Assembly (NCBI GenBank): GCA_024692955.1
Contig: JAILLW010000044.1
Coordinates: forward strand, 7,027-71,026
Length of the DNA: 64,000 nucleotides
Direction: 5' to 3'
Source: Lachnospiraceae bacterium
GTDB taxonomy: Bacteria > Bacillota > Clostridia > Lachnospirales > Lachnospiraceae
Shown here: positions 2,373 to 27,333 of the stretch, piece after piece
How positions within the stretch are numbered: the first letter of the stretch is position 1
Layout of the letters: every line of letters starts with the position of its first letter
The notes under the pieces: model-generated
Told to the model about the DNA's origin: nothing
Database searches by the model: none
What the model saw: the letters and a program-made list of their open reading frames with translations, nothing else
Made by a program: the position numbers and the translations under genes

Positions 2373-3413
2373 TCAGATTCTCCATCTGTATTCCGCCATC
2401 TTTACGCCCGCGAAGATGGCATCAAGCATACTTTCCGCATTCGCTCTGCCTTCCCCGGCTTTCCCGAATGCCGTTCCGTGATCCACCGATGTTCTCACGA
2501 TGGGCAGCCCGATCGTGCAGTTGATCCCGCTGACAGCTTCGTACTTATCATGGATCAGATCATACTTGAATCCGCTTAACTTAAGGGGTATATGCCCCTG
2601 GTCATGATACATTGCCACCACGATATCGTATTGACCCGCCTGGCATTTTACGAATACCGTATCCGGAGATTCCGGCCCGGTGACATCAATTCCCTGTTTC
2701 TTCGCTTCTTCCACGGCAGGCCGGATCTCATTCTGTTCTTCCGTCCCGAAAAGACCGTTTTCCGAGCAGTGCGGATTTAAGCCTGCCACCGCGATACGCG
2801 GTTTCTCTATGCCCAGCTGTCTTACTCCTTCATCCGCCAGCTGAATGGTTTTGAGGATCCGTTCCTTTTTTACCCGGTCACAGGCCTCCCTTAAGGACAC
2901 ATGTGTTGACACATGGATTACCCGGATCGTTTTGCTCGCAAGCAGCATGGCGAAGTCCTTCGTTCCGGTGCATTCCGCCAGGATTTCGGTATGTCCGCTG
3001 TAATGATGACCGGCCATATTCAGGGATTCCTTGTTGATCGGCCCCGTTACGACGGCATTCACTTCTTTGTTCTTCGCAAGTTCGATTCCCCGGATGACAT
3101 ACTGATACGCCGCTTCGCCGCACAATACGCTGTTTTTCTTATACTCCCAGCCTCCCGGCTTCAGAAACCCCAGATTGATAAAGTCAATGGTACCGAACTC
3201 ACCTCTTGCTTCATCCGGCTTTCCGATTTCATTCAGTTCCATCGGAAGATTGCAGAATCTTAATGCATCCTTCAGTGCTTCCCGGTCCCCCACGACGATC
3301 GGTGTGCATTTCTGGTATACTCCCACCTGGCTCAGCGCCTTTACTATGACCTCGGCGCCGATCCCGGCGGGATCTCCCATTGTTATCGCCAGTTTCATCT
3401 TCATTCGGCTCAT
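2373..3413 (-). CDS. PdxA-family NAD-dependent 4-phospho-hydroxyacid dehydrogenase (4-hydroxythreonine-4-phosphate dehydrogenase-like)
   Basis: 346 aa. Family motifs present: MGDPAGIG, GHTEILAE, GLNPHCSENGLFG, AMYHDQGHIPLK, RTSVDHGTAFGKAG. The true start may be one of the internal Met codons at positions 4-6. Confidence 0.8.
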   Translation of the reverse strand: MSRMKMKLAITMGDPAGIGAEVIVKALSQVGVYQKCTPIVVGDREALKDALRFCNLPMELNEIGKPDEARGEFGTIDFINLGFLKPGGWEYKKNSVLCGEAAYQYVIRGIELAKNKEVNAVVTGPINKESLNMAGHHYSGHTEILAECTGTKDFAMLLASKTIRVIHVSTHVSLREACDRVKKERILKTIQLADEGVRQLGIEKPRIAVAGLNPHCSENGLFGTEEQNEIRPAVEEAKKQGIDVTGPESPDTVFVKCQAGQYDIVVAMYHDQGHIPLKLSGFKYDLIHDKYEAVSGINCTIGLPIVRTSVDHGTAFGKAGEGRANAESMLDAIFAGVKMAEYRWRI

Positions 3414-3839
3414 CTACCTTCCCAGTATTTTTTCTTTGATCTCGGTGGTTGAAATCCCTTTGGTGTACGGAACATAAACCACATCAACATTGATTTCTTT
3501 CAGGACCTCCTCAAAGCGGATCCATCGTTCCGTTCCTTTCCAGTCGTCCCCGATAAAAACCACATCAAAGTGATAAAGTTCCCACAATTTGATCTTGTCC
3601 CGAAACCTGTTGATCACGGCCCGGTCAACGCCCTTGATCGATTCCACGATCTTCTTACGGTCTTCCTCATTGATGATCGGGCGTCTGTGCTTGTATTCCT
3701 CGACCACATCGTCGCCGTGAACGCCCACGATCAGATATTCGCACCGCTTCTTTGCCTCGTTGATCATATTCAGGTGTCCGACATGAAAAAGATCATACAC
3801 ACCGTCAGTATATCCGACTTTATACTTCTTCTCCGTCAT
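3414..3839 (-). CDS. TagD/TarD-like cytidylyltransferase (glycerol-3-phosphate cytidylyltransferase family)
   Basis: 141 aa. HxGH motif (GVYDLFHVGHLNMI) and C-terminal YTKGISTTEIKEKI, resembling RTEGISTT of TagD. Abuts the PdxA-like start and overlaps LicD by 4 nt. Confidence 0.8.
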   Translation of the reverse strand: MTEKKYKVGYTDGVYDLFHVGHLNMINEAKKRCEYLIVGVHGDDVVEEYKHRRPIINEEDRKKIVESIKGVDRAVINRFRDKIKLWELYHFDVVFIGDDWKGTERWIRFEEVLKEINVDVVYVPYTKGISTTEIKEKILGR

Positions 3840-4663
3840 ATTTTCTCATCTCCCGGTAAAACCAGTTTTGAAACCGGATGGGTTTTTCGCTTCTCAACCG
3901 GTGGCAGTTCCATATAGTTCCCATACTTCACGGAAAGATATCCGTCATAGTCTTTCGCTCCCGGAAATCTCACTCCGGAAAAATCATATCGGCAAAGTTC
4001 CGTATACCATTTCCTCATATAACCGAAACAATGCTTCGGAGTCGGAAATGTCAGTATCCGGACAAGCCTGGTCTTTTTATGCCGCCCCCGCTGAATAAAA
4101 GCCTCGTATGCCTTCTTAACTCTATTCTCGGGAATATGAGACATTAATCTGTAGATCTGCCGGTAAACCGGATTCTCTTCTGTCTTTGCGCCCACTTTGG
4201 ACCAAAAGAGTTTCCTGAAAAGAAAACACTCCGCAAAATGCAATCTTCGTGAAATCCATCCGTCCGGAACATTATCAAAGGGCATCAGATCGATAAAGAC
4301 CCCCTGTTCATAGGGCATATACTCCTGATCCTGCCGGATAAAAGCCGTTCCCTTCCTCCGCAGTTTACCGTAGCCCCAGCGATAGCCTTTCGTGTCTCGA
4401 AAATCCTGCATATAAAAGCGATCATGGTCAAGTTCTGTCCGGCAGGCTTCCCGGAACTTCTCATACTCTTCCCGGAGAAACCCGATGTCCGCATCATCGT
4501 CCCAGGGGATCGGGCCCCGGTGCCGTATCGCGCCCAGCATCGTTCCACCGACCATGTTGTAGTGGATCCCGCACTTTCTGCAGATCCGGTCCACTTCCGA
4601 GATCAGTTCCAGCTCGACCGCCTGAAGTCTCTTTAGTTGCTCACCTTCAATCTTAACTGCCAA
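3836..4663 (-). CDS. LicD-family phosphotransferase (transfers phospho-alcohol from a CDP-activated donor to a glycan)
   Basis: 275 aa. Reads LQAVELELISEVDRICRKCGIHYNMVGGTMLGAIRHRGPIPWDDDADIG, the LicD nucleotidyltransferase-fold signature with a DxD. Confidence 0.8.
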   Translation of the reverse strand: MAVKIEGEQLKRLQAVELELISEVDRICRKCGIHYNMVGGTMLGAIRHRGPIPWDDDADIGFLREEYEKFREACRTELDHDRFYMQDFRDTKGYRWGYGKLRRKGTAFIRQDQEYMPYEQGVFIDLMPFDNVPDGWISRRLHFAECFLFRKLFWSKVGAKTEENPVYRQIYRLMSHIPENRVKKAYEAFIQRGRHKKTRLVRILTFPTPKHCFGYMRKWYTELCRYDFSGVRFPGAKDYDGYLSVKYGNYMELPPVEKRKTHPVSKLVLPGDEKI

Positions 4664-5503: not shown

Positions 5504-8122
5504 CTATTTCCCGGTCAGTTCCCGATATACCTTCTCCCCGCAGTCGCCGTCCGGACTCGCATTCACCGGCCGGTAAGCCTCAAGCTGGCTTTCCTTATCA
5601 AACCCTCCAATATTCCCCGAAAGAATATCCGGAAGGGTATTGAATACGCCCTCATAGCAGCAATAGGGCAGCCATTGCGAGACCTTCTGAAAACCGGGGG
5701 CAAGGTTTCTGATCTCCTCCCGGTCAAAAGTCACCGGAACTTCGCTGCAGGTCCCTTCCGAAAGATCGAACCGGTAGGTCTTATGCTCTGGATGGTAACT
5801 AAAGAAGGCTTCAAGACTCCATATATCCTGATAAAAAGCACCGATGGAAGTGTTGGGCCAATAATCATTCACCGGGTTCAGTGAATAGGGAAACGGAGGG
5901 ATCCATTCCCGGGCTTCATGGGTCTTCGTGTCGAGTTCCACAAATTTATTTCCCCAGTTGGGCGCGAGGATCAGCTTCCCGTTCACGAAAATCCCGTTGC
6001 TGAAATAAAATGTATTGCTCTCAACGCCCTGCGGCCTCTGGATCGAACTGAGGCCCTCAATCCCGGCATCCACCTTCTCGAAGCGGTCTTCGGATAATGT
6101 CCATTTCCCGAGAACGGTGCCTTCATAGGGCAGGAACCAGATAACATTAAGGTTCTCGCGATCTCGCAGAACACCGATGTAAAGACCGTTTAGGGGAACT
6201 GCCCTCTCCTCGACCCTTCCGTTATCCAGACTGATCACCCGGAGTCTCGTTCCCTCCGTATTCAAACAGAATATCCTTTTCCCCATCATTTTGATGCCGG
6301 GGATCCGGATTGCCTTCTCCGGAGTATCGATCACTTGAGGTTCATCCGAACTCCGGTCGAACATCTTCGTTCCAGGTATCCATCGCGCCGCGATCACGCG
6401 CCGCTCCTGTTCGTTGACATAAACCGAATATTCATCCGTAAATGCCTCGTCCCGGACATAGGAAACCTTTTCCGTATTCGCATCAAACCGCACCAATGCA
6501 GGATATCTGTTGGGATAGATCCACCAAATATGCGGATCTTCCAAAAGCAGATTTGTGAATCCTCCAAATGCCCCGCTCCGGTCAACCTCATGCCTGAGTT
6601 CGATCCTTCTTTTTTCCAGCGTTTCGGGATCCAGGATCAGGATATGCTCCGCATTCTGCGGAAAGACCACGATCTTTCCCTCTGCTTCGATGGCACGGGA
6701 GTAATACCCGCCCCTTGAATACTCTTCGGAAAGATTGCAGAGGTATTTATAATGATGATCCCCTTCGCGGTCTTCAAAAAGCCGGTTCCCGGCCGTGATA
6801 CAGTAGCGGTTATTCCGGTCTCCTCGCAGCCACTGTGCCACATTCACCTTCCAGTCATCCTCTCCGGGCGCCTCTGTCAGCCGGTTATTCAGAATATAGA
6901 TCGGTTTCCCGGCGACACCGAAAAGTGAAATGACACTGGTTCCGGAATCTCCGAGATAGGCGTCGCAGAGGGCAATGGTGGATTCGATCTCCGGAGTTTC
7001 ATCGAGAATGCCGATCTTCTGTTCGAGAAACAGTCTTTTCAGCTCCTGATAGGCTGCCTTCGCTTCCGGCCGCATGGATTCAATCGTCGATTCAAGAAGC
7101 GGATGCGGGCGCCAGATGAGACAGACATCATCCCTGCCCCGGAAGGACTCAAACACATACGCCATTTTCTTCAGGAACTGAGGGGCGTTATGAAGGAAGC
7201 CTCCGAGACTGGTATTGTAGAAAAAGACTCTCTTCCCTCTGATCCGGTCTTCCCATTCCACAGGCGGAGCCGGAGGATTCTCACAAAGGCGGATCACCTT
7301 GTCAAACTTCGGGGATCCGAGAGGCATGAATTTTTCTTTCGGGATCTGAGGATCGAAGAATCCGATCATGCTCTCGGACTGTATTACAATATGATCCGAA
7401 TGAACATAGGCCGGGAGCAACTCGTGTCCGGCCGCCATATTGCCGGAGGTCGCAAAGTAGGGGATATATACAAGACAGTCCGTATACTTCTTAAGACGGC
7501 TCGAATAGTAATCCGGGTGCACACTCGTCACATGATTCCATTCATCATAGGGATTATGGATAAAGATCATTTCCGGATGACGCGCCGTGATGTCATAGGT
7601 CCGGTAATCCACCACCGGTACATTCTCCGGATACAGTTCCGCTTCATAATGCTCCGTCTTGAAGGTGCCGTCCGGATTCCTGTCATAATACGGGATCGGA
7701 ATGACATAGGCGTCACAATTTGGATCCGTGTCCGCGGCCATCCATACGGACTCAAGAGAATCCCACATAGCGGCCTTATAGGGAAGGAAAACAGCCTCGA
7801 TCCGCTCGGAAAGCTGACTGATCTCCCCCCTGCATCCGTTGATACAGGAGTCCAGTTTATAGGTGGCTCTTTCCTCGCCGGTGGAAAAGCGGTAAAGAAG
7901 CTCACAATAGTCTTCGAGATATCCGACCGCCTTTGTCCCCTCTCCCTCGGAACCTTCTATGGAATTGCCCACGCTGATGGCGGCGTCCTGACAGTCCTGA
8001 AGAAGTGTGGCAAGGGCTGCTTCTCCCTTTTTTCCGGAGGTCAGGCACTGTTTGATGCTCCGGTCCGCTTTCAAAAGTGTATTCAGAAGCCCCAGTATTT
8101 CATTTTTCAGATATCGTCTCAT
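5504..8122 (-). CDS. TagB/TagF-like CDP-glycerol (polyol-phosphate) glycerophosphotransferase with a ~450-aa C-terminal extension
   Basis: 872 aa. The central region VIPIPYYDRNPDG...IFIHNPYDEWNHVTS...LIWRPHPLL...LCDAYLGDSGTSVISLFGVAGKPIYILN matches the TagF-type GT-B catalytic pattern (RPHP His, D-x-S-S block). The N-terminal helical region and the C-terminal half are unassigned. Confidence 0.6.
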   Translation of the reverse strand: MRRYLKNEILGLLNTLLKADRSIKQCLTSGKKGEAALATLLQDCQDAAISVGNSIEGSEGEGTKAVGYLEDYCELLYRFSTGEERATYKLDSCINGCRGEISQLSERIEAVFLPYKAAMWDSLESVWMAADTDPNCDAYVIPIPYYDRNPDGTFKTEHYEAELYPENVPVVDYRTYDITARHPEMIFIHNPYDEWNHVTSVHPDYYSSRLKKYTDCLVYIPYFATSGNMAAGHELLPAYVHSDHIVIQSESMIGFFDPQIPKEKFMPLGSPKFDKVIRLCENPPAPPVEWEDRIRGKRVFFYNTSLGGFLHNAPQFLKKMAYVFESFRGRDDVCLIWRPHPLLESTIESMRPEAKAAYQELKRLFLEQKIGILDETPEIESTIALCDAYLGDSGTSVISLFGVAGKPIYILNNRLTEAPGEDDWKVNVAQWLRGDRNNRYCITAGNRLFEDREGDHHYKYLCNLSEEYSRGGYYSRAIEAEGKIVVFPQNAEHILILDPETLEKRRIELRHEVDRSGAFGGFTNLLLEDPHIWWIYPNRYPALVRFDANTEKVSYVRDEAFTDEYSVYVNEQERRVIAARWIPGTKMFDRSSDEPQVIDTPEKAIRIPGIKMMGKRIFCLNTEGTRLRVISLDNGRVEERAVPLNGLYIGVLRDRENLNVIWFLPYEGTVLGKWTLSEDRFEKVDAGIEGLSSIQRPQGVESNTFYFSNGIFVNGKLILAPNWGNKFVELDTKTHEAREWIPPFPYSLNPVNDYWPNTSIGAFYQDIWSLEAFFSYHPEHKTYRFDLSEGTCSEVPVTFDREEIRNLAPGFQKVSQWLPYCCYEGVFNTLPDILSGNIGGFDKESQLEAYRPVNASPDGDCGEKVYRELTGK

Positions 8123-8218
8123 AATGACCTTTACGAACCGGCGACCCTTTCTTCAGGATCCGTGAATGTCGCGGGATTGTCACCGGAATCTCCCGCAACA
8201 ACAAGATATTGTGCCACA

Positions 8219-8248
8219 ATTATAATAATACCATACATTTATGGTATT
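8219..8248 (-). promoter_or_regulatory. Candidate promoter (-10 TATAAT at 8219-8224) overlapped by a perfect 9-bp inverted repeat AATACCATA-N4-TATGGTATT (8227-8248)
   Basis: Read directly. It lies between the terminator at 8339-8368 and the TagF-like start at 8122. I see no convincing -35. Confidence 0.3.
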
Positions 8249-8338
8249 GGACAGAGCAAAAGCCGTCACATGGCCCACAATTATATATCGGCAGATCCGT
8301 CCGGAATGATTACCCGGCCATGTCTTTTTTCGGAGCTC

Positions 8339-8368
8339 AAAAAAGCCCCGGAGAAACACTCTCCGGGG
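8339..8368 (-). terminator. Rho-independent terminator after the GDPD gene
   Basis: Minus-strand RNA reads CCCCGGAG-AGUGUUU-CUCCGGGG followed by CUUUUUUG. It starts 30 nt after the stop at 8398. Confidence 0.75.
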
Positions 8369-8397
8369 TAAATGGTTTTGGGTAAGCTGTTTTTTGA

Positions 8398-9126
8398 TCA
8401 AAGATACATCTCGGGCTCGTTCAGAAAGACATCCGTAATGCCCTTTTCTTCAAGAGCCGCAAGGTCCAGCTTTCCTCCGGTCGGCTTTTCCGGGTATAAA
8501 TGCCCGGTAAGCCATGCCCGGACCGGATATCCTTTAAACTTATCGGGCTCAAAGTCCATGCCCTGCCAGAATGGATGAAGCGCATCCGCGCCGATGCTTT
8601 TTGCCTTATAAAGGCAGTCGGACACTTTTTTATCGAGCATCCCGGTCCCCGCATCGGGTACAAGTTCCTTAATCCTTACTATCGACGCGGCATAAAAACT
8701 CGAATAGACAACCGACTTTTCAAGTCCGTATTCCGATATCAGTTTTACGATCTTCTCCTCCATCCCGGGATAGGGAAAAATACTGTTCTTAAGTTCAATA
8801 TTGAGCAGAAATCCCTTTTTCATCGCATCCGCAAGGAGATCCAGGACCTCTTTCATGGTCGGGATGCGTTCCGCTTCCCTTTTTCCGGTATGGATATGGA
8901 AAGATTTAAGTTCTTCGAGTGTATAATCTCTCACAAATCCGTATCCGTCGGTGGTCCGGTCGATCTTTTCATCATGAATGACGACCAGCTCTTTGTCCTT
9001 CGTCAGCTGAATATCAAGTTCGATCCCCGTAAGGCCCCTTCCAAAAAGCTCCAACGCTTTGGAGAAGGAAGTGATCGTGTTTTCCGGATACCTCTGTGAG
9101 CACCCCCGGTGCGCCCAGATCTTCAT
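8398..9126 (-). CDS. Glycerophosphodiester phosphodiesterase (GDPD/GlpQ/UgpQ family)
   Basis: 242 aa. Reads MKIWAHRGCSQRYPENT...GIELDIQLTKDKELVVIHDEKIDRTTDG, covering the HRG, ENT, E-x-D and HD catalytic motifs. Confidence 0.85.
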   Translation of the reverse strand: MKIWAHRGCSQRYPENTITSFSKALELFGRGLTGIELDIQLTKDKELVVIHDEKIDRTTDGYGFVRDYTLEELKSFHIHTGKREAERIPTMKEVLDLLADAMKKGFLLNIELKNSIFPYPGMEEKIVKLISEYGLEKSVVYSSFYAASIVRIKELVPDAGTGMLDKKVSDCLYKAKSIGADALHPFWQGMDFEPDKFKGYPVRAWLTGHLYPEKPTGGKLDLAALEEKGITDVFLNEPEMYL

Positions 9127-10205
9127 GCTCTTCCACCTGCCTTCAAATGTTTCTCCATAAGATCCGCCATACAGATCGAACGGTCCTTTGCCGCCTTCCG
9201 GTCTTCCTCATCCGGTCCGTCTGTGGCTTCTTCGCAAATCCCCTCGATCTGTCTTTGGAATTCCCCGATCTCGTACCGGAGTCCGTCCCCCTCGAAGGGG
9301 ATGTCGAAGCTCTGCATCTTCGACGGATCCTCGAAGTGGATCTCAAAATGTCTCGTCTTCCACCAGGGGGCGTCCGCCTTAATGAACCCCTTCGTTCCGC
9401 TTATAAGAAGCCGGCCCTCCGCCTTTACGCCGAGTCCGCAGACTGCGGAAGCCATCCTTCCGGGATAATCAAGATCCAGTTTCGTAAAGGTATCGATCCC
9501 GAGCCCGTTCCGGATCGACGAGAAGCGGACGGATTCATATCCGCTTCCGAAAAGATCAAGGATCGGGAGCAGCACATAGCTTCCGAGTTCCGTAAAACTG
9601 CCTCCGTATCCTCTGTCCGTAAGTTCCCGTCTGTCGGGACTTTCCAGCTTTGTAAAGCAGCTTTCGACGAATTTCACCTCACCGATGATCCCGTCCGATA
9701 CCGTCTGAAGCAGTTCCCGGTATCCGGGGCAATAGGCCGTTTTCAGCCCCTCCATCAGTATGAGACCCTTTTCTTCCGCAAACTGAAAGCATTCCGCCGC
9801 CTCTTTCGAAGAAAGGGTCATGGGCTTTTCGCAAAGGACATGCTTTCCCTGCCGAAGAGCCTTAAGGATATATTCATAATGTGTTTCATGGGGTGTCGCG
9901 ATATAGACAGCATCCGTGACGTTCCAGAAATCCTCCGGAATGCACGAAGTCCCCGGATCGACTCCGGATTCCCGGGAGCCTTCTTTCGCCGCGAATGCAT
10001 ATGCTTTCGGGACTGTGGCTTTATTATCCGCTATTCCTTCCGGGAGTTTTCCCGCCGCGGTGTCTCCCCATACCTCCCGCACGAACCGCTCCGCGCTTCC
10101 CGGGTGGGGATTATAGACCGCGGTGATCTCCGCTCCAGGAACGCACATTGCCTCCGGGACAAACCGCTTTGCGATCCTTCCTGTTCCGATGATCCCGATC
10201 TTCAT
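9123..10205 (-). CDS. Gfo/Idh/MocA-family NAD(P) oxidoreductase
   Basis: 360 aa. Motifs KIGIIGTGRIAKRF (Rossmann) and HVLCEKPM. Clear paralogue of the C-terminal part of the upstream fusion protein, with a ~50-aa insert. The two genes overlap by 4 nt. Confidence 0.8.
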   Translation of the reverse strand: MKIGIIGTGRIAKRFVPEAMCVPGAEITAVYNPHPGSAERFVREVWGDTAAGKLPEGIADNKATVPKAYAFAAKEGSRESGVDPGTSCIPEDFWNVTDAVYIATPHETHYEYILKALRQGKHVLCEKPMTLSSKEAAECFQFAEEKGLILMEGLKTAYCPGYRELLQTVSDGIIGEVKFVESCFTKLESPDRRELTDRGYGGSFTELGSYVLLPILDLFGSGYESVRFSSIRNGLGIDTFTKLDLDYPGRMASAVCGLGVKAEGRLLISGTKGFIKADAPWWKTRHFEIHFEDPSKMQSFDIPFEGDGLRYEIGEFQRQIEGICEEATDGPDEEDRKAAKDRSICMADLMEKHLKAGGRA

Positions 10206-11560
10206 GCAAGCGCCGCCTGATATGCCTTTCGTTTTTCCATGAATTTCTCCACCACATCCGCCATTGCGATGGATTCCCCGGCCGTCAGCTTGTAATCATT
10301 TCCGCCGGTCCCGTTTACCTTGGATATGAATTCCGCGATCTCGTACCGGAGACCGTCGTCTCCGAGAAAGCTGGATTCAAAATGATCGATCTTTCCCGGA
10401 TCCTCGTAGCGGACATCGAAGCCTCTCGTAAGCCACCAGGGGGATTTCACGAGGATATATCCCTTCGTCCCCGCGATGATCAGCTCACCTTCCGATTTTA
10501 CGCCCGCTCCCGCTTTCGCGGTGGCAAGTGCGTTCTTATAACGGAACTGAACTTTCGTAAAGGTGTCGATCCCCTTTTTCCCGTATACCGACTCGATGCG
10601 GACGTCCTCATAATCTTTTCCGAGCAGTTTGAAGATCGGGAGCATCCCGTAGCTTCCGTACTCCAGAAAAGCCCCGCTGTACTTTTCGTCCGTCATCTCT
10701 CTCGTGCCCGGAAGGCCGATCCTCGTAAACGTCGCCTCGATATCGCAGATCTCGCCGATGATCCCGCTCCTTGCCACGGAAAGCAGCTGAAGGAATCCGG
10801 GAAGATACGCCGTACGGATCCCCTCCATCAGTGTGACCCTGTTTTCTTTGGCAAGGTCATAGAGTTCCGCCGCTTCGTTATAGGTAAATGTCATCGGCTT
10901 TTCACAGAGCACGTGCTTTCCGGACAGAACGGACTTTCGGACATATTCGCTGTGGGTCTCATTCGGCGACGCCACATAGACGGCATCCACTTCTTCCAGA
11001 AAACTCTCGAAATGATCTGTCCAGGTCTTGATCTGATACTTCTCCTCAAAGGACCGTGCGCTCTCCTCCTCCGGGTTATAGGCATTTACTACCTCAATGC
11101 CGGATACAAAACTGGTCTCCTTCAGAAAACGCGGAGCGATACGCCCCGTACCGATGATGCCGATCCGGACGATCTTCTGCCGCTCATCCCGAAGCAGGCT
11201 CGAAGAGATCCCCGCCGTTCTCGGAAGATATATCACCTCACAGTATTTTTTCAGATAATCATAGCGTCCGGCCCAGTCGCTTCCCAGAGTAAAGACATCG
11301 ATTCCGTAGCGCTGGATGTCCTCCACCTTCTGCCCTTCATGATCCTCCACGATGATCTCATCGGCGAAGCCGGTATTCCAGACATTTTCCATCCGGACCC
11401 GGATCGGATCGACCAGGTTCAGTTTTCCGCGCATCAGATCATAGTGCTCGGTCGTAACCCCGACGATCAGATGATCGCCGAGCTCCTTTGCCCGTTTTAA
11501 AAGCTGGTAATGTCCCTCATGGAAAAGATCGAAGGATCCATACGTGATCACTTTTTTCAT
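10202..11560 (-). CDS. Fusion protein: TagD-like cytidylyltransferase (aa 1-130) plus Gfo/Idh/MocA oxidoreductase (aa ~131-452)
   Basis: N-terminus: YGSFDLFHEGHYQLLKRAKELGDHLIVGV...PRTAGISSSLLR. Then: VRIGIIGTGRIAPRF...HVLCEKPM. Confidence 0.8.
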   Translation of the reverse strand: MKKVITYGSFDLFHEGHYQLLKRAKELGDHLIVGVTTEHYDLMRGKLNLVDPIRVRMENVWNTGFADEIIVEDHEGQKVEDIQRYGIDVFTLGSDWAGRYDYLKKYCEVIYLPRTAGISSSLLRDERQKIVRIGIIGTGRIAPRFLKETSFVSGIEVVNAYNPEEESARSFEEKYQIKTWTDHFESFLEEVDAVYVASPNETHSEYVRKSVLSGKHVLCEKPMTFTYNEAAELYDLAKENRVTLMEGIRTAYLPGFLQLLSVARSGIIGEICDIEATFTRIGLPGTREMTDEKYSGAFLEYGSYGMLPIFKLLGKDYEDVRIESVYGKKGIDTFTKVQFRYKNALATAKAGAGVKSEGELIIAGTKGYILVKSPWWLTRGFDVRYEDPGKIDHFESSFLGDDGLRYEIAEFISKVNGTGGNDYKLTAGESIAMADVVEKFMEKRKAYQAALA

Positions 11561-11566
11561 AAAAAC

Positions 11567-11941
11567 TCAGATCTCCTTCACCCACAGCCCGTGCAGATTG
11601 CAGTATTCATAGGCCGCTACGGCAGCATCGCCGTCAGCAAGGACAAAGACCGCCTCGGGCTTCTCGCCGGGCTTTAAATATTTCGTCTGATAACCCTGCT
11701 TCGTTTCCAGTATGATCCACTGGATGTAATGCGCATCCAGCATGGGATGTTCCACATCCCCGACCTTTACGGACACTTTGTTTCCGTCGATGCTTACGGA
11801 CGGGATGTGCTTTTCATACGCGCCGTCCGAAGTCCCCGGAACGAGCTCCGTCATCGCTTTTCCGCAGCAGAACGCCGGTACGCCCGAATCGTTCAGCTTC
11901 GTAATGATGTTACCGCATGTTTCGCATTTGTAGAATTTCAT
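11567..11941 (-). CDS. dfx: Desulfoferrodoxin (class I superoxide reductase)
   Basis: 124 aa. N-terminal desulforedoxin-like Cys motif (KCETCGN...FCCGKAM). SOR centre II residues present (EKHIP, VEHPM, YCNLHGLW). Confidence 0.85.
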   Translation of the reverse strand: MKFYKCETCGNIITKLNDSGVPAFCCGKAMTELVPGTSDGAYEKHIPSVSIDGNKVSVKVGDVEHPMLDAHYIQWIILETKQGYQTKYLKPGEKPEAVFVLADGDAAVAAYEYCNLHGLWVKEI

Positions 11942-11973: not shown

Positions 11974-13317
11974 TTAAACCACTTTTACAGCGCCTTCCTC
12001 CTCCACCGCCCGAAGCGCGGCTCCGATCACCTGATCCATATCGTAATACCGGTATTCTCCGAGGCGGCCGCCGAAGATGATGCGGGGTTTTCCGGGTTTT
12101 TCCCCTTCCCCGGCAGACTCCCCGCAGCTCGCCTCCCGCCGTTCATTCTCTTCCCCGGCAAGGCGCCGGTATTCCTCATACAGCTTCGTATTTCGCTCAT
12201 CATTCACCGGATAATAAGGTTCATCTCCCTTCTTCCACTCCGTGCTGTACTCTTTCGAGATCACGGTATGGGGAATGTCATTTCCCTCATCATCCTTTCC
12301 GAATTCGAACCATTTATGCTCGATGATCCGGGTATAGGGCGTATCTCCGTCCGTATAATTGATCACGGCATTGCCCTGATAGTTTTCAACCGGAAGATCC
12401 TCGGTCTCAAAGGTCACTCTCCGGTATTCCAAAGCACCGAGGGAATATCCGAAATACTCGTCAATGGAACCGGTATAGATCACGCATTTTGTGTTTTCAT
12501 CAAGCCGGCCGCGGTTTTCCGGATCCAGATAGTCCACGCCGAGAACCAGAGTGATACTTCCCGATCCGACTGAGACTTTTGTTCCCGTTCTCCCGGTTCC
12601 GGGGAGCGCCTCTGCGTGTCCGCCTTTCTTTTCCGGAATGCCCTCATCTCCCGGCGCCTTTTTCGGGTTTTCCCCCCTTATTCCGAGGATCCTTTCCACC
12701 ATCTTCGTATATCCCCCCATCGGGATCCCCTGATAGCGGGCATTGAAATAATTATTGTCATAGGTGAGCCTCACGGGAAGGCGGCGGATGATGGAAGGAG
12801 GAAGCTCCGTACAGGGCCGTCCCCACTGCTTTTCCGTATAATGCTTAATAAGTTTTTCGTAAATATCCGTGCCCACCAGACTGATGGCCTGCTCCTCGAG
12901 GTTTCGGGGTTCATATGTGTCCGCGGCACCGTCCCTTAAAGTCGCCAGTGCGCTTTTTCTCTGCTCCGCAATCTTTTTCTTTGCATCTTCCGGAGTCACC
13001 GCGCCCCACATCTTATTGAAGGTATACATGTTAAAAGGCAGGGAATACATCTCGCCTTTATAATTTGCCACAGGCGAATTCGTATAACGGTTAAACTCCG
13101 CAAAGCGGTTCACATATTCCCAGACCTTCCGGTCGTTCGTATGGAAAATGTGGGCGCCGTACTTATGTACCCGGATCCCGCCTTTTTCTTCCGTATAAGC
13201 ATTACCGGCGATATGGTTCCGCCGGTCGATCACAAGGATACTCCTTCCCTTTTCGGCAAGCTCCCGCGCCATTACGGCACCGTAGAGTCCCGCACCCACG
13301 ATCAGATAATCATACAT
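11974..13317 (-). CDS. glf: UDP-galactopyranose mutase carrying two low-complexity insertions
   Basis: 447 aa. Reads MYDYLIVGAGLYGAV...HKYGAHIFHTND...YTEKQWG...GALEYR...EPYYPVND...FGGRLGEYRYYDM. This is collinear with my recollection of E. coli Glf except at roughly aa 212-254 and aa 388-412. Confidence 0.85.
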   Translation of the reverse strand: MYDYLIVGAGLYGAVMARELAEKGRSILVIDRRNHIAGNAYTEEKGGIRVHKYGAHIFHTNDRKVWEYVNRFAEFNRYTNSPVANYKGEMYSLPFNMYTFNKMWGAVTPEDAKKKIAEQRKSALATLRDGAADTYEPRNLEEQAISLVGTDIYEKLIKHYTEKQWGRPCTELPPSIIRRLPVRLTYDNNYFNARYQGIPMGGYTKMVERILGIRGENPKKAPGDEGIPEKKGGHAEALPGTGRTGTKVSVGSGSITLVLGVDYLDPENRGRLDENTKCVIYTGSIDEYFGYSLGALEYRRVTFETEDLPVENYQGNAVINYTDGDTPYTRIIEHKWFEFGKDDEGNDIPHTVISKEYSTEWKKGDEPYYPVNDERNTKLYEEYRRLAGEENERREASCGESAGEGEKPGKPRIIFGGRLGEYRYYDMDQVIGAALRAVEEEGAVKVV

Positions 13318-22967: not shown

Positions 22968-24764
22968 TTATCTTCCGAGGGTGGTGAGGATGTGCTCGAT
23001 CATCTCGTTAATGGCATTTACATATCTGCTGGATGCGTTAAACGCGTTCTGGAACTGGATCATGTTCGAAAGCTCCTCATCCGAGGATACTCCGAGGATC
23101 TCCTCCCGGGCGCTTCGGATATTGGTCACCGTAATGGTCTGGTTCGCGGAGATCCCGCGCATCACATAGCCGGTATTGGACACCTGGGAGATCAGGTTAT
23201 TGTAATAGTTCGTAAGGTTCGTCGTGGTCCGTACATCCGGATTCAGGGTATAGATCTCGCTTGCGAAAACGGACTTTAAGGCATCGCCTATGAACTCGTG
23301 ATCCGCCTTGCCGTCCGGACGGATGAAGCCCAGCAACGAGGGGGCCTTTCTCAGAGTCTCGTTGATCTTCACATTCGTTGTCGTAAAGCCCGGGCCGTCT
23401 GCCGAATCGTCCGTCATATTGAACATGGTATAAGGCTTTCCCGTGGCGGGGTCCACCAGATAGCCGTCGGCGTCAAAGGAAGGCTCGTTTCCGCCGCCGT
23501 CCAGCCATTTCCCGGTATCGGGATCCTTCGTATAGGTCGCGGAACCGTCTTTGCTCCTTATCTGATAGGTTCCGTCGGGAAGATCTTCCTTTATGCAGCC
23601 GTTTCCGAAAAGGGCCGCCTCGTAGAGGACGCTGTTGATCCCCGTGGTCACCTGATTCACAAGCTTGTCGAATTCGGCCATAACATTCATCACGACGGAA
23701 TCCTTGATCTTCGCATAGGCCTTCGCATCCAGCGCATCCTTCTCGGCCTGTGTCGCTCCCGGAGGATAATCCGAAGGATCCGCCTTCATATCCGCGAAGG
23801 TCGTCCGCCTGTCACCTCTTGCGAGCAGAAGCCCCTTCAGGGAACCGATATCCGTATTCATGTCGCTGGAGATCTCGCGGTCCATATTGAAGACACGCCC
23901 GATGATGTTTCCGTTGGCATCCGCCGTCGGATTACCGTCCGCGTCGTATTTTGCCAGCATCTTCCAGTAGGGCGTGTAGAAACCGGTCACGGGATCGGTA
24001 TAGATCTCCAGTTCCTTGACGCTTCCCACGTTCACGAAATCAACGCCTTCGATCTGGATCAGATAATTGCCGTCTACGTCCGTATCGAGCGTGATGTTCG
24101 CGATCTCGGAAAGCTCGTCAACCAGACGGTTTCTCTCATCGTTAAGGTCATTCGCGTGCTCGACCTCGCCGGCCTCGATCTTCAGGATCGCCTGGTTCAC
24201 CTCGTCGATGCGCCTTCCGATCTCGTTGATGCGGTCCGTCTTCTGTTTTACGTCGAAATTCAGATCGTCCTGATAGGTCGCCAGATCATCATAGACCAGC
24301 CGGGAACGGTTGATGAACTCGTTGCAGCGCTGTACCAGAACGCCCTGGTTTACCGTATTGGAAGGATCCTTCGCGATCTCCTCCACGGATTCCCAGATGT
24401 TCTTCAGCGTATCTGCGAACGCTTCCCCGTCCAGCTCCTGAAAGATCTCCTCCACCTCTTCGATGGCATCGCAGGAGATATTGTAGAAACCTTCCCTGCC
24501 GTGCTCCCGGCGGTAGGATTTGTCCAAAAAATAATCCCGAACCTGCGCCACCTCGGCGAATTTCACGCCGAGCCCCACCTGCTGATAAGCATTGGCGGAC
24601 GCCGATTTCGAGATCGTATTGTAAAACCGGGTCGACTGCCTTACCTGCTGACGTGTGTAGCCTTCGGTGTCCACGTTCGTCATATTGTGCGCCACGGTGT
24701 TCAGCGCGTTCTGTGATGTCTGTAAGCCGCTGGCTCCTACATAAAGGCTGCCGAAAATACCCAT
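22968..24764 (-). CDS. flgK: Flagellar hook-associated protein 1 FlgK (paralogue 1)
   Basis: 598 aa. N-terminus LYVGASGLQTSQNALNTVAHNMTNVDTEGYTRQ. C-terminus GVSSDEELSNMIQFQNAFNASSRYVNAINEMIEHIL. Confidence 0.85.
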   Translation of the reverse strand: MGIFGSLYVGASGLQTSQNALNTVAHNMTNVDTEGYTRQQVRQSTRFYNTISKSASANAYQQVGLGVKFAEVAQVRDYFLDKSYRREHGREGFYNISCDAIEEVEEIFQELDGEAFADTLKNIWESVEEIAKDPSNTVNQGVLVQRCNEFINRSRLVYDDLATYQDDLNFDVKQKTDRINEIGRRIDEVNQAILKIEAGEVEHANDLNDERNRLVDELSEIANITLDTDVDGNYLIQIEGVDFVNVGSVKELEIYTDPVTGFYTPYWKMLAKYDADGNPTADANGNIIGRVFNMDREISSDMNTDIGSLKGLLLARGDRRTTFADMKADPSDYPPGATQAEKDALDAKAYAKIKDSVVMNVMAEFDKLVNQVTTGINSVLYEAALFGNGCIKEDLPDGTYQIRSKDGSATYTKDPDTGKWLDGGGNEPSFDADGYLVDPATGKPYTMFNMTDDSADGPGFTTTNVKINETLRKAPSLLGFIRPDGKADHEFIGDALKSVFASEIYTLNPDVRTTTNLTNYYNNLISQVSNTGYVMRGISANQTITVTNIRSAREEILGVSSDEELSNMIQFQNAFNASSRYVNAINEMIEHILTTLGR

Positions 24765-24788
24765 ATTTTTTATCCTCTTACAGGGACC

Positions 24789-25307
24789 CTACTGTTTTGC
24801 ATCGAAACCGCTGGGCGGGATGCCCATCTGCATTCCGGCGGAATACGCTCCTTTATCGTAATTTGCGGTCTCCGGCCCGGTCTTCATGGTCTTCAGCATA
24901 TTCATTTCGAATTCGACCATCTCCATGGCGTTCGCAAGAAGGATCCTGTTCTGTTCGTTTGCCCGTTTCACCGCGTACACCACGGCACGCAGCCGATCGT
25001 GAACCCTGGCAAGTTTCTGCTGCTCCTCGGGCCGCTGGCCGAGCATATCGACCAGGTCCGAGAGCATCAGGGTCTTTACGTCCCTGTTGATCACATTGGC
25101 GATGTCGCGAAAAGTTTCCTGCCGCTGTTTATCATAGCGGCCGATCCGCCCCACGACTTCCTGTTCTTCATCCGTAATGCGGGATAATTCACTCAAGTCG
25201 CCCTTCACGATCACGGGCGACTTGGCTTCGGACAGCTTAAGCAAGTTCTCGTATTCCTGACTCTCGTTGCCGAGAATATCGATCAGGTTTTCCATCAAAC
25301 TTGCCAT
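24789..25307 (-). CDS. flgN: FlgN-family flagellar export chaperone
   Basis: 172-aa helical protein (LIDILGNESQEYENLLKLSEAK...). It occupies the canonical position between flgM and flgK. Confidence 0.65.
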   Translation of the reverse strand: MASLMENLIDILGNESQEYENLLKLSEAKSPVIVKGDLSELSRITDEEQEVVGRIGRYDKQRQETFRDIANVINRDVKTLMLSDLVDMLGQRPEEQQKLARVHDRLRAVVYAVKRANEQNRILLANAMEMVEFEMNMLKTMKTGPETANYDKGAYSAGMQMGIPPSGFDAKQ

Positions 25308-25311
25308 AAGC

Positions 25312-25599
25312 TTATCCTAATGCCTGAAAGTTCGAATAGAGCTTGTCCGCGAAACTGTCTACATCCACGCTGTAGGTTCCGTTCTTGATCTGCTCCTTGA
25401 TGGAGTTCACAAGATCCGTTCTGATATCGGGTGCCTTGTTAACGGCAGCTTTCGCTGTCTGGATGTCTTTTCCTGCACTGCTCAGCTGAAGCTGGTCGGA
25501 AAAGCTCGGCCTGGCCGATGCCGCCTGCTGCGGACGGGATGCGTTCTTCGCGCTTGTGAGTTTTTGAACCTGCATCTGGGTATATGCATCGATTCTCAT
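25312..25599 (-). CDS. flgM: Anti-sigma-28 factor FlgM
   Basis: 95 aa. Disordered N-terminus, then the C-terminal stretch IRTDLVNSIKEQIKNGTYSVDVDSFADKL, typical of FlgM. Confidence 0.8.
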   Translation of the reverse strand: MRIDAYTQMQVQKLTSAKNASRPQQAASARPSFSDQLQLSSAGKDIQTAKAAVNKAPDIRTDLVNSIKEQIKNGTYSVDVDSFADKLYSNFQALG

Positions 25600-25652
25600 A
25601 ATTACTCCTTCCCGGGGATATAATATCCCTTCTTATGCATTTTCTGTATTAT

Positions 25653-25678
25653 TTATCGGAGTATTTTCCCGATACTTA
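25653..25678 (-). promoter_or_regulatory. Sigma-D/sigma-28-type promoter TAAG-N14-TCCGATAA upstream of flgM
   Basis: The minus strand reads GTTAAGTATCGGGAAAATACTCCGATAAAT, about 55 nt upstream of the flgM ATG. Confidence 0.45.
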
Positions 25679-25704
25679 ACCCCTGCAGGAAAAAAAACGA
25701 ATTT

Positions 25705-27333
25705 TTATTGCGGGGCCGCCTGAAGTACCACTTCGATGGTCTTTTTCTGATATCCTACGGGTGTTCCCTGCATGATCTGCAGCTGCACCGTCTGTCCGGC
25801 GGAGAAATAACTGAGCTCGTTCTTCAGATCGTCCATGCAGGAAATGTCTTCACCGTTCATCCCGGTGATGATATCACCCTTCATAAGTCCCGCGGCATCC
25901 GCTCCGGAACCTTCGTTCACGGAAGAAATGTAGACACCCATCGGGATCCCGTAACTCAGGGAAAGATCCGCGTCCACATCCACACCGGTGATGCCGAGGA
26001 CACCCTTGCTGCCTTCATCCACCCTTGTGCGGGTCTGCTTGTTGATCATATTCTCAATGATGGGCTTCGCGCTGGAGATCGGGATCGCGTATCCCATCCC
26101 TTCCACTACGGAGCCGCCGATCTTGTTGGAATTGATCCCGATCACTTCACCGCTGATATTAAGGAGCGCGCCGCCGGAATTGCCCGGATTGATGGCCGCG
26201 TCCGTCTGGATAAAGGTCGCGATCTCCTTGTCACCGTATTCCTCATCCGACAGAGCAGCCGCGATGGGCCGGTTGAGGGCCGATACGACACCGGTGGTAA
26301 CGGACTGTCCGTAGCCGAGGGAATTGCCGATGGCGATCACGGGCTCGCCCACTGTCAGTGTATCCGAGTCGCCCAGTTTCGCTACGGAAATCGCGTTCTT
26401 TGTATCGGCAGAGATCAGTGCCGTCTGAACGGAAATCACCGCCAGATCCTTATCCGCGTCCTTCCCTTCCAGTTTTGCTTCCGCCTCCGAATTGTCGTCA
26501 AAGGTGACCGTAAGCTCCTTGGCATCCTTTACCACATGATAGTTCGTCACGATCAGCAGCTGATCGTCGTTCTGTCCGACGATGATCCCGCTTCCCGCGC
26601 CTTCCGCGTCCTGGTAGTAGGTCTGCCCGAAGTAATTGAGCATTTCCGTATATTTATTGTTCACGGAAACCAGCGCCGGCATCGTATTCTTAACGACCTC
26701 CGTCACATCCGTCACCGTCGTGGTCACGACATTCTGTATGGGATCCCCCGTCGAAGAAGCTGCCGGAGCAGCGGTCGTCTGATTGTCCGGAAGGAGGGTC
26801 TCAACGGGATCCGTTGTCGTTGCCGCCGCAGTGCTCTGCGATGCGGCAACCGTATCGATGGCTGCCTGATCCTGTTTATCCGAAGAGGTTTCGATCGAAG
26901 GGATCCTTTCCTTTACGAAATTGCCGGCAGCCGATACCGCGAGGAATCCGCCTCCCGCAAATACACCGAATACTACTCCGATGAGAGCCCCCGCAAGGAC
27001 CTTCTTCATGATGCCGCCCTTTTTCCGCGGCGCTGCCGCCTTCGGTGCAGGAGAAGGTACCGATGCTCTCGCGGTCTGCGGTCCCGACGCGGAAGCCGTG
27101 CCCTGTGAATATCCGCTCTGCGTATAGCTGCTCTGCGTATAGCCGTTCTGCGTATATCCGCCCTGCGTATAGCCGCTTCCGGTATAGCCGCTCCGGCTGT
27201 AGGTGTCCTGGGAATAGGCGCGCTGCGTATAACCGTTTCGGTTCAGAGAGCTTTCCGAAGCCCCCCGGCCCGTTCCGCTGCTGCTGTGATAATAATCGTT
27301 CAAACCGTTTCTGTAGCCCTGATTGCCATCCAT
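25705..27333 (-). CDS. htrA: HtrA/DegP-type S1C serine protease with one PDZ domain and a repetitive Gly/Tyr/Thr/Gln N-terminal tail
   Basis: 542 aa. Catalytic context TNYHVV, DLAVI, GNSGGALL. C-terminal PDZ (GVYISSVNEGSGADAAGLMKGDIITGMNG). One TM helix follows the repeat region. Confidence 0.85.
   Translation of the reverse strand: MDGNQGYRNGLNDYYHSSSGTGRGASESSLNRNGYTQRAYSQDTYSRSGYTGSGYTQGGYTQNGYTQSSYTQSGYSQGTASASGPQTARASVPSPAPKAAAPRKKGGIMKKVLAGALIGVVFGVFAGGGFLAVSAAGNFVKERIPSIETSSDKQDQAAIDTVAASQSTAAATTTDPVETLLPDNQTTAAPAASSTGDPIQNVVTTTVTDVTEVVKNTMPALVSVNNKYTEMLNYFGQTYYQDAEGAGSGIIVGQNDDQLLIVTNYHVVKDAKELTVTFDDNSEAEAKLEGKDADKDLAVISVQTALISADTKNAISVAKLGDSDTLTVGEPVIAIGNSLGYGQSVTTGVVSALNRPIAAALSDEEYGDKEIATFIQTDAAINPGNSGGALLNISGEVIGINSNKIGGSVVEGMGYAIPISSAKPIIENMINKQTRTRVDEGSKGVLGITGVDVDADLSLSYGIPMGVYISSVNEGSGADAAGLMKGDIITGMNGEDISCMDDLKNELSYFSAGQTVQLQIMQGTPVGYQKKTIEVVLQAAPQ
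27118..27192 (-). repeat. About 5 tandem copies of a 15-bp unit (ctgcgtatagccgyt) encoding the (S/G)GYTQ-type pentapeptide repeats of HtrA
   Basis: Read directly. The in-frame units start at 27118, 27133, 27148, 27163 and 27178. Confidence 0.75.

Follow-up and report, generated by a model that had tools for sequence, protein, structure and literature searches.

We analysed a 64,000-nucleotide stretch of the genome of a Lachnospiraceae bacterium (assembly GCA_024692955.1, contig JAILLW010000044.1, positions 7,027 to 71,026), which we refer to as the window and whose numbering is used for all positions unless another contig or locus is named. The subject is a gene module built around a protein that joins a TagD-like cytidylyltransferase (CT) to a full Gfo/Idh/MocA dehydrogenase (Gfo), followed by a second, stand-alone oxidoreductase (Gfo2), a glycerophosphodiester phosphodiesterase (GDPD), a terminator and an 872-aa protein. 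All four open reading frames that an earlier note on this DNA had described were found, on the minus strand. The features are as follows.

10202-11560, minus strand: CT-Gfo fusion, 452 aa (PF01467 at residues 5-125, PF01408 and PF22725 at residues 131-369)
11183-11560, minus strand: CT domain of the fusion, residues 1-126, a TagD paralogue by sequence (PF01467)
10202-11170, minus strand: Gfo/Idh/MocA oxidoreductase domain of the fusion, residues 131-452 (PF01408, PF22725)
9123-10205, minus strand: Gfo2, stand-alone Gfo/Idh/MocA paralogue, 360 aa, with an insert in the Rossmann domain
8398-9126, minus strand: GDPD, predicted cytoplasmic glycerophosphodiester phosphodiesterase, 242 aa (PF03009)
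8346-8368, minus strand: intrinsic terminator hairpin directly after the GDPD stop, a 10-bp stem with 7 GC pairs, then CTTTTTT
5504-8122, minus strand: soluble 872-aa protein, candidate CDP-alcohol phosphotransferase (fold and profile-profile alignment)
11974-13317, minus strand: Glf, UDP-galactopyranose mutase, the upstream neighbour (TIGR00031, 380 bits)

The fusion overlaps Gfo2 by 4 nt and Gfo2 overlaps GDPD by a further 4 nt, through which Gfo2 is probably translationally coupled on both sides. As the earlier note had it, Gfo2 is a paralogue of the Gfo half of the fusion, sharing 43% identity with 53 gap positions, and its insert, put there at ~50 aa, measures ~40-50 aa. The sequence of GDPD, terminator and 872-aa reading frame after the paralogue was likewise found as described: GDPD scores 118 bits against PF03009 (cut-off 23.6), has 2PZ0 as its best PDB match (E 2e-45) and its catalytic motifs HR, ExD, HD and ExK are readable as AHRG, ELD, IHD and IELK, and the hairpin with its T run occupies 8368-8346. 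Neither the fusion, Gfo2, GDPD nor the 872-aa protein contains a hydrophobic segment.

A conserved cytidylyltransferase-oxidoreductase fusion

The 120 best database homologues of the fusion are proteins of Lachnospiraceae and Butyrivibrio, and nearly all share its two-domain architecture, the exceptions being a few short entries without a CT domain. The fusion is also present in the isolates Butyrivibrio sp. MB2005 and Lachnospiraceae MC2017, NK4A144 and KH1P17. Full-length fusions were found in 18 of 150 other genera sampled from the same family, in which ~13% of the genera sampled carry one, and in one of ~397 sampled genomes of the phylum outside it, and a library of 1.84 billion proteins held 319 representatives at E <= 1e-30. 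Reading of the motifs split the fusions into two clades: clade A, with at least 51% identity to the window protein and including it, keeps GxGxGRIA, the EKP lysine and the E-x-x-x-Y tyrosine, whereas clade B, at 40-46% identity, has lost the GxGxxG, the EKP lysine and the catalytic tyrosine. The fusion could have been produced by an assembly error or a frameshift, or its oxidoreductase half could be dead, an explanation to which we attach practically no weight. The artefact was rejected on the architecture shared by homologues, isolates and sampled genera, since the same 450-aa arrangement recurs across hundreds of independent assemblies and isolates; a dead oxidoreductase half, which the earlier note had raised against its own proposal, does describe the sister clade B but not the clade of the window, in which every redox motif is retained. 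The joining of a TagD-like CT to a full Gfo/Idh/MocA dehydrogenase is therefore real and conserved, with its catalytic motifs intact. The clade-B fusions (L047-L051 and L053-L055) also read HYGH in place of HEGH in the CT domain, and have no GDPD or 872-aa family gene alongside. A literature search for a TagD-Gfo/Idh/MocA fusion found no paper on such a domain pair in the library consulted; a preprint on the qim operon of group A Streptococcus was examined and is unrelated.

The Gfo domain of the fusion scores 100 bits against PF01408, with PF22725 in addition, and its motifs GIIGTGRIA, CEKPM and FLEYGSY are intact and conserved throughout clade A. Its best characterised structural relative is KijD10 (PDB 3RBV), a dTDP-sugar 3-ketoreductase with which it has the positions of the EKP lysine and the tyrosine in common: these align with K102 and Y186 of KijD10, which can be taken as its catalytic residues because the PDB holds K102E and Y186F mutants. 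The match is only 66 bits, however, and KijD10 differs in acting on a dTDP-ketosugar and in having no nucleotidyltransferase fusion. Gfo2 also has intact motifs but is confined to nearer relatives, so that the tandem paralogue highlighted by the earlier note is real yet is not core, being an optional add-on of a sub-clade. A separate Gfo-GDPD fusion in a related locus (L052:8752-10644, G147), which adjoins Glf and FliD like the window, reads LNP for EKP and has lost the catalytic lysine.

Pathway partners and the 872-aa protein

Relatives contain a range of natural fusions of the same domains: CT-Gfo-GDPD as a single polypeptide (L056, P0245), metallophosphoesterase-CT-Gfo-GDPD (P0244), metallophosphoesterase-CT-Gfo (P0246, P0248), CT-CT-Gfo (P0247), Gfo-metallophosphoesterase (P0277), LicD-Gfo-GDPD (P0301), Gfo-GDPD-LicD (P0333) and Gfo-GDPD (L052). 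The partner metallophosphoesterase is distantly Icc/Rv0805-like and occurs as a free-standing neighbour in three further loci (L008, L039, L043). GDPD adjoins the fusion in ~15 loci, and most of ~27 loci have, no more than a few kb from the fusion, a LicD gene, an 872-family gene or a canonical TagF-like gene (so called from its match to references derived from PF04464); this proximity holds at nearly all clade-A loci and was absent at several clade-B loci. Gfo is the constant member, and because of the natural fusions and the tight gene pairing the CT, GDPD, the second phosphodiesterase and the transferase belong to its pathway, which bears out the earlier placing of GDPD and the 872-aa protein in one pathway with the fusion. 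In sister Lachnospiraceae two true-TagD genes are fused to GpsA (L072:5324-6841, G034, and L073:6100-7566, G094, both Pfam-confirmed); GpsA is the dihydroxyacetone phosphate (DHAP) reductase that yields sn-glycerol-3-phosphate, and such a fusion would lead from DHAP to CDP-glycerol within one polypeptide. A further cassette of LicD, a small CT and PdxA (L009, L039, L080, and 2373-4663 in the window) lies a few kb from the pair of CT-Gfo and 872-family gene, and the two head-group cassettes often travel together.

The CT domain of the window protein matches Bacillus subtilis TagD (1COZ) with E 5e-33 and 47% identity. A TagD search of the family returned three classes of CT: stand-alone true TagD, with 66-77% identity to Bacillus TagD, in 36 genomes; the CT domains of fusions, with 44-52% identity to B. 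subtilis TagD; and the small CTs of the LicD-CT-PdxA cassette type, with 36-44% identity to TagD. When 30 fusion CT domains were compared with 16 true TagD sequences, HxGH, K46, R55, D66, D94-W95 and RTxGIS were kept (the window protein has HEGH at residues 14-17 and RTAGISS at 114-120, and HxGH and RTxGIS(T) are present in all 30), whilst several TagD invariants were replaced by changes fixed in the fusion clade, namely N41D, K44R, RYVD to GFAD, loss of W74 and E75G, together with a fixed glycine at position 45 and a one-residue insertion. Of these positions, K44, K46 and W74 presumably lie at the glycerol-phosphate site of TagD. By these residues the CT domain reads as a TagD paralogue clade distinct from true TagD. 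True TagD was found in 0 of 11 clade-A genomes against 36 of 151 overall, although in this and the other co-occurrence counts the sampled genomes are related and not independent, so that significance is overstated.

The 872-aa protein gave no match in Pfam (even at E <= 10), NCBIfam or PDB sequence searches, a 40-sequence profile of it found no match among PDB sequences, and its ~1,900 homologues are every one annotated as hypothetical protein. An AlphaFold (AF2) model built on 40 sequences (pLDDT 91, pTM 0.84) has three parts: a helical bundle (residues 1-102), a two-lobed Rossmann domain of the GT-B type (~105-415) and a beta-propeller (~430-800). Foldseek hits for the middle part are GT-B UDP-GlcNAc 2-epimerases, and the hit for the C-terminal part is virginiamycin B lyase, a seven-bladed propeller. 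In a profile-profile alignment with hhalign, residues 103-425 aligned with a profile of 16 PF04464 proteins with a probability of 94% (E 1.3e-7), against 2.7% for a UDP-GlcNAc 2-epimerase profile, so the link to TagF is made at profile level by one alignment with a single negative control; the motifs GSPKFD/GyPRxD, FYNTS/YAPTxR, WRPHP/xHP and GDxGTSV/ITDYSS fall in register, with identity at some residues only. The label TagF-like given to the protein by the earlier note is therefore supported at the level of profile and fold only, whilst ordinary Pfam, NCBIfam and PDB searches do not see it. The polymerase role proposed with that label finds no support, as nothing points to polymerisation and addition of a single head group is likelier.

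The family is strongly associated with the module in genomes: it is present in 10 of 11 clade-A, 0 of 8 clade-B and 14 of 131 other genomes. Its gene directly adjoins CT-Gfo even in relatives where the 872-aa protein is at just 42-43% identity, and in one genome (G053) it lies beside a true TagD gene and a flagellin gene. Neither a canonical TagF nor a true TagD was found in the genome of the window, which leaves the fusion and the 872-aa protein as the only candidates there for such chemistry. The 872-aa protein is thus a candidate remote CDP-alcohol phosphotransferase of TagF type that would take the product of the fusion, a CDP-alcohol being its candidate donor on the evidence of the gene pairing with CT genes. 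Short forms of the family (~440-460 aa; L042:3562-4878, G015, G081, G110) consist of the helical bundle and the TagF-like GT-B domain only, which suggests that the propeller is an optional addition, perhaps for binding the acceptor.

Proposed head-group decoration and its alternatives

The best explanation, to which we assign a probability of about 0.55, is a cytoplasmic module that decorates a glycan with a phosphodiester-linked head group by way of a CDP-activated glycerol-type phosphate. The domain content, catalytic motifs, pathway membership and gene pairing beneath it are observed, and from these we infer a substrate, an order of steps and an acceptor. The Gfo domain, optionally with Gfo2, would carry out an NAD(P)H-dependent keto reduction, either of a small keto-phosphate before cytidylyl transfer or of a CDP-linked ketone after it, and the TagD-paralogous domain would form a CDP-alcohol from CTP and the alcohol phosphate, the latter being most probably of the glycerol type with three carbons. 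GDPD would feed the same pool by hydrolysis of glycerophosphodiesters, a job which elsewhere the Icc/Rv0805-like metallophosphoesterase, as a further partner, may also do. The 872-aa enzyme would then take the alcohol phosphate off its CDP donor and attach it to the hydroxyl of a sugar in a surface polysaccharide or flagellin O-glycan.

A glycerol-type three-carbon phosphate is favoured because GDPD, which is established to yield sn-glycerol-3-phosphate, forms part of the same fused proteins, because true TagD pairs with an 872-family gene in G053, because clade-A genomes are without true TagD, because the CT domain is 47% identical to TagD, and because the bacterial family also contains GpsA-TagD fusions. 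These last fusions follow the plan of reductase plus CT, which suggests that the Gfo domain likely supplies or finishes the alcohol moiety by keto reduction. The fixed substitutions in the CT domain, the presence of GpsA and the KijD10-like pair of residues nevertheless leave room for a stereoisomer, another small polyol, or reduction after transfer.

Several results weigh against this explanation. The CT domain scores 103.1 bits against the TagD equivalog TIGR01518, below its cut-off of 165.4, and this score, the fixed substitutions in the K44/K46 loop and the loss of W74 mean that its substrate may not be sn-glycerol-3-phosphate. GpsA is already present in the genome, so that a second supply of glycerol-3-phosphate is not obviously needed, and we know of no Gfo/Idh/MocA enzyme that reduces DHAP, the nearest characterised relative, KijD10, reducing an NDP-ketosugar. 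The 872-aa protein has no match to the PF04464 family model, the WHG histidine of the TagF N-subdomain was not aligned in it by global hhalign (an unreliable alignment), and its relation to TagF is remote.

Within glycerol-type decoration, a plain sub-case is that the product is standard CDP-sn-3-glycerol, with Gfo as a non-orthologous DHAP reductase, GDPD as salvage and a simple glycerol-phosphate substituent as the outcome. The GpsA-TagD fusions of sister genomes speak for it, as does the mutual exclusion of clade-A fusions and true TagD across genomes, and all of the domains can share glycerol-3-phosphate as substrate or product; but the CT substitutions are fixed against a very strongly conserved true TagD, GpsA is already at hand and the DHAP reductase would be without precedent in its family, which keeps this narrow version at the level of a tentative possibility. 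A bolder version we hold to be doubtful: that Gfo reduces a keto-phosphate or a CDP-ketone, an activity new to its family, that with the diverged CT it makes a CDP-activated head group other than ordinary sn-glycerol-3-phosphate (for example its sn-1 enantiomer, glycerol-2-phosphate or the phosphate of another small polyol) and that the 872-aa protein founds a new family of soluble CDP-alcohol phosphotransferases acting directly on glycosylated flagellin. The pneumococcal CDP-2-glycerol pathway (Gtp1-3), whose proteins are annotated as glycerol-2-phosphate dehydrogenase, nucleotidyl transferase and phosphotransferase, was considered as a possible unfused equivalent but was not relied upon.

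The head group might also not be of the glycerol type at all but another polyol or sugar-derived alcohol phosphate (ribitol, erythritol, threitol, a hexitol or a cyclitol), with Gfo reducing a ketose phosphate or CDP-ketose and the CT adapted to that substrate. This would account for a CT clade distinct from true TagD with changes fixed around the alcohol-phosphate loop, it would suit characterised Gfo/Idh/MocA enzymes, whose substrates are mostly the ring hydroxyls or the ketones of sugars, NDP-sugars such as that of KijD10 among them, and a CT-then-reductase order on a CDP-ketose has a precedent in Campylobacter jejuni HS:5, where CDP-6-D-fructose is converted to CDP-6-D-glucitol (PMC10918830). 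We nonetheless consider it rather unlikely, as such a route leaves no place for a glycerophosphodiesterase, which is recurrently fused or adjacent, the 872-family transferase is paired with true TagD in G053, and the 47% identity to TagD suggests a small substrate pocket. The earlier note had suggested a donor of this kind as a possibility, for example an inositol or keto-sugar-derived alcohol phosphate. No myo-inositol-1-phosphate synthase (PF01658) was found in the 99%-complete genome, which makes an inositol head group unlikely, and the phosphodiesterase fusions, GpsA-TagD and the TagD-872 pairing together favour a glycerol-type phosphate over a sugar alcohol. Finally, GDPD and the dehydrogenases could form a catabolic glycerophosphodiester unit unrelated to glycans, with the CT and the 872-aa gene as bystanders. 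Diesterase plus dehydrogenase does resemble the familiar glpQ-glpD logic, yet a covalent fusion ties the dehydrogenase to a CT and elsewhere to LicD transferases, the loci lie within polysaccharide or flagellin-glycan clusters and no transporter is conserved alongside, so that we regard this as very improbable.

Genomic setting, possible acceptor and comparison with known systems

To the left of the module genes the cluster extends for at least 13 kb with glycosyltransferase and modification genes, whilst to the right late flagellar genes (FliD, FliW and FlgL-like) lie 5-9 kb from it. Flagellin genes were found within 10 kb of clade-A fusions in five loci (L001, L004, L005, L007, L041) and of 872-family genes in two more (L071, L074), and FliD adjoins the Gfo-GDPD gene in L052; flagellar adjacency thus concerns ~6 of 21 clade-A loci (about 30%), where roughly a few per cent would be expected by chance. 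Elsewhere the module belongs to a wall-polysaccharide operon, which is NusG-led in L057 and contains RgpF and a canonical TagF in L081. Flagellin-flanked loci and wall-polysaccharide loci together suggest that the module is a portable decoration cassette. The acceptor here may be a flagellin glycan or a wall polysaccharide, the flagellin genes near the module pointing to the former as a possible target, a connection which the earlier note had not drawn.

Several neighbouring genes were also recorded. Glf recurs beside the module in the relatives L039 and L052, and between Glf and the fusion a desulfoferrodoxin (superoxide reductase) gene (11567-11941, minus strand) interrupts a co-directional run that is otherwise glycan-related. 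To the left of the window in the same genome (C91:429-7397) and at positions 3-371 of the window, a short Rossmann-like module (xxYGxGxxG...) of similar kind is present in each of several consecutive glycosyltransferase and radical-SAM proteins; it may be the PF22674 C2185-like_N domain found on glycosyltransferases in L057, L080 and L081. Outside the window, on contig C22 of the same genome (C22:12357-17100 and 24357-27277), a 729-aa protein with a C-terminal CT domain and an unassigned 590-aa N-terminal part, the Icc-like metallophosphoesterase and LicD lie in this order ~7 kb upstream of three tandem flagellin genes, perhaps as a second cassette for a phospho-head-group at a flagellin locus.

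When wall polymers and flagellin carry head groups linked by phosphodiesters, these influence charge, phage receptors and recognition by the immune system, and almost nothing is known of the surface chemistry of the Lachnospiraceae, which are dominant bacteria of the gut and rumen. If the proposed pathway is true, a TagD-type CT, a Gfo/Idh/MocA reductase and diester salvage would make up a fourth enzyme solution for CDP-polyols, the ~1,900-member 872-aa family of hypothetical proteins would gain its first functional setting, and glycerol-phosphate-type decoration of flagellin or wall glycans would be predicted in cultured Butyrivibrio and Pseudobutyrivibrio.

A close counterpart is TagD/TagF of Bacillus and Staphylococcus wall teichoic acid, in which, as is proposed for the module, an HxGH CT makes a CDP-alcohol and a GT-B enzyme of TagF type transfers the alcohol phosphate, and the GpsA-TagD proteins of sister Lachnospiraceae resemble the fusion in joining a reductase to a CT. 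The module differs in that its CT forms a separate paralogue clade below the TIGR01518 cut-off, its reductase is of the Gfo/Idh/MocA family instead of GpsA, and the 872-aa protein, unlike TagF, has no PF04464 match, adds a helical bundle and a beta-propeller and gives no sign of polymerisation. In TarI/TarJ and in Bcs1 of Haemophilus influenzae a reductase and a CT cooperate or are fused in the making of a CDP-polyol, and these systems use an IspD-type transferase with a medium-chain (MDR) or short-chain (SDR) dehydrogenase/reductase. The domain pair of the module is unlike theirs, as the earlier note had stated, being a TagD-type CT (PF01467) with a Gfo/Idh/MocA reductase (PF01408/PF22725), and a phosphodiesterase is added. 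In TarI/TarJ and Bcs1 reduction precedes cytidylyl transfer, according to the references as cited in PMC10918830, whereas in the CDP-6-D-glucitol pathway of C. jejuni HS:5 (HS5.18, HS5.17) the reductase works after cytidylyl transfer, on the CDP-linked ketone (PMC10918830). This second order is also possible for the module, although HS:5 has an SDR reductase, a hexose substrate and no diesterase.

On the side of the acceptor, the soluble TagF-like FtaD of Clostridioides difficile attaches a CDP-activated head group through a phosphodiester to O-GlcNAc on flagellin, the head group of the type A system (FtaABCD/FgtA) being N-methylthreonine made by FtaA, FtaB and FtaC (bioRxiv 10.64898/2026.02.12.704994; PMC4441256). 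The module would be similar in its candidate soluble TagF-like transferase and in a gene set that at some of its loci lies near flagellar genes; FtaABCD, however, has no Gfo, GDPD or TagD-type CT, and for the module a flagellin target is suggested by gene neighbourhood alone. In the Lic phosphocholine pathway of H. influenzae the glycerophosphodiesterase GlpQ (protein D) feeds CDP-alcohol decoration of LicD type. Here too a diesterase would feed the decoration, but GlpQ is extracellular and supplies choline, whereas the GDPD of the module is predicted to be cytoplasmic and is elsewhere fused to the activating enzymes. Because its CT fails the TagD equivalog, its reductase belongs to a different family, its phosphodiesterases are built in and its transferase lies outside PF04464, the module falls outside TagD/TagF, TarIJ/Bcs1, Lic and FtaABCD.

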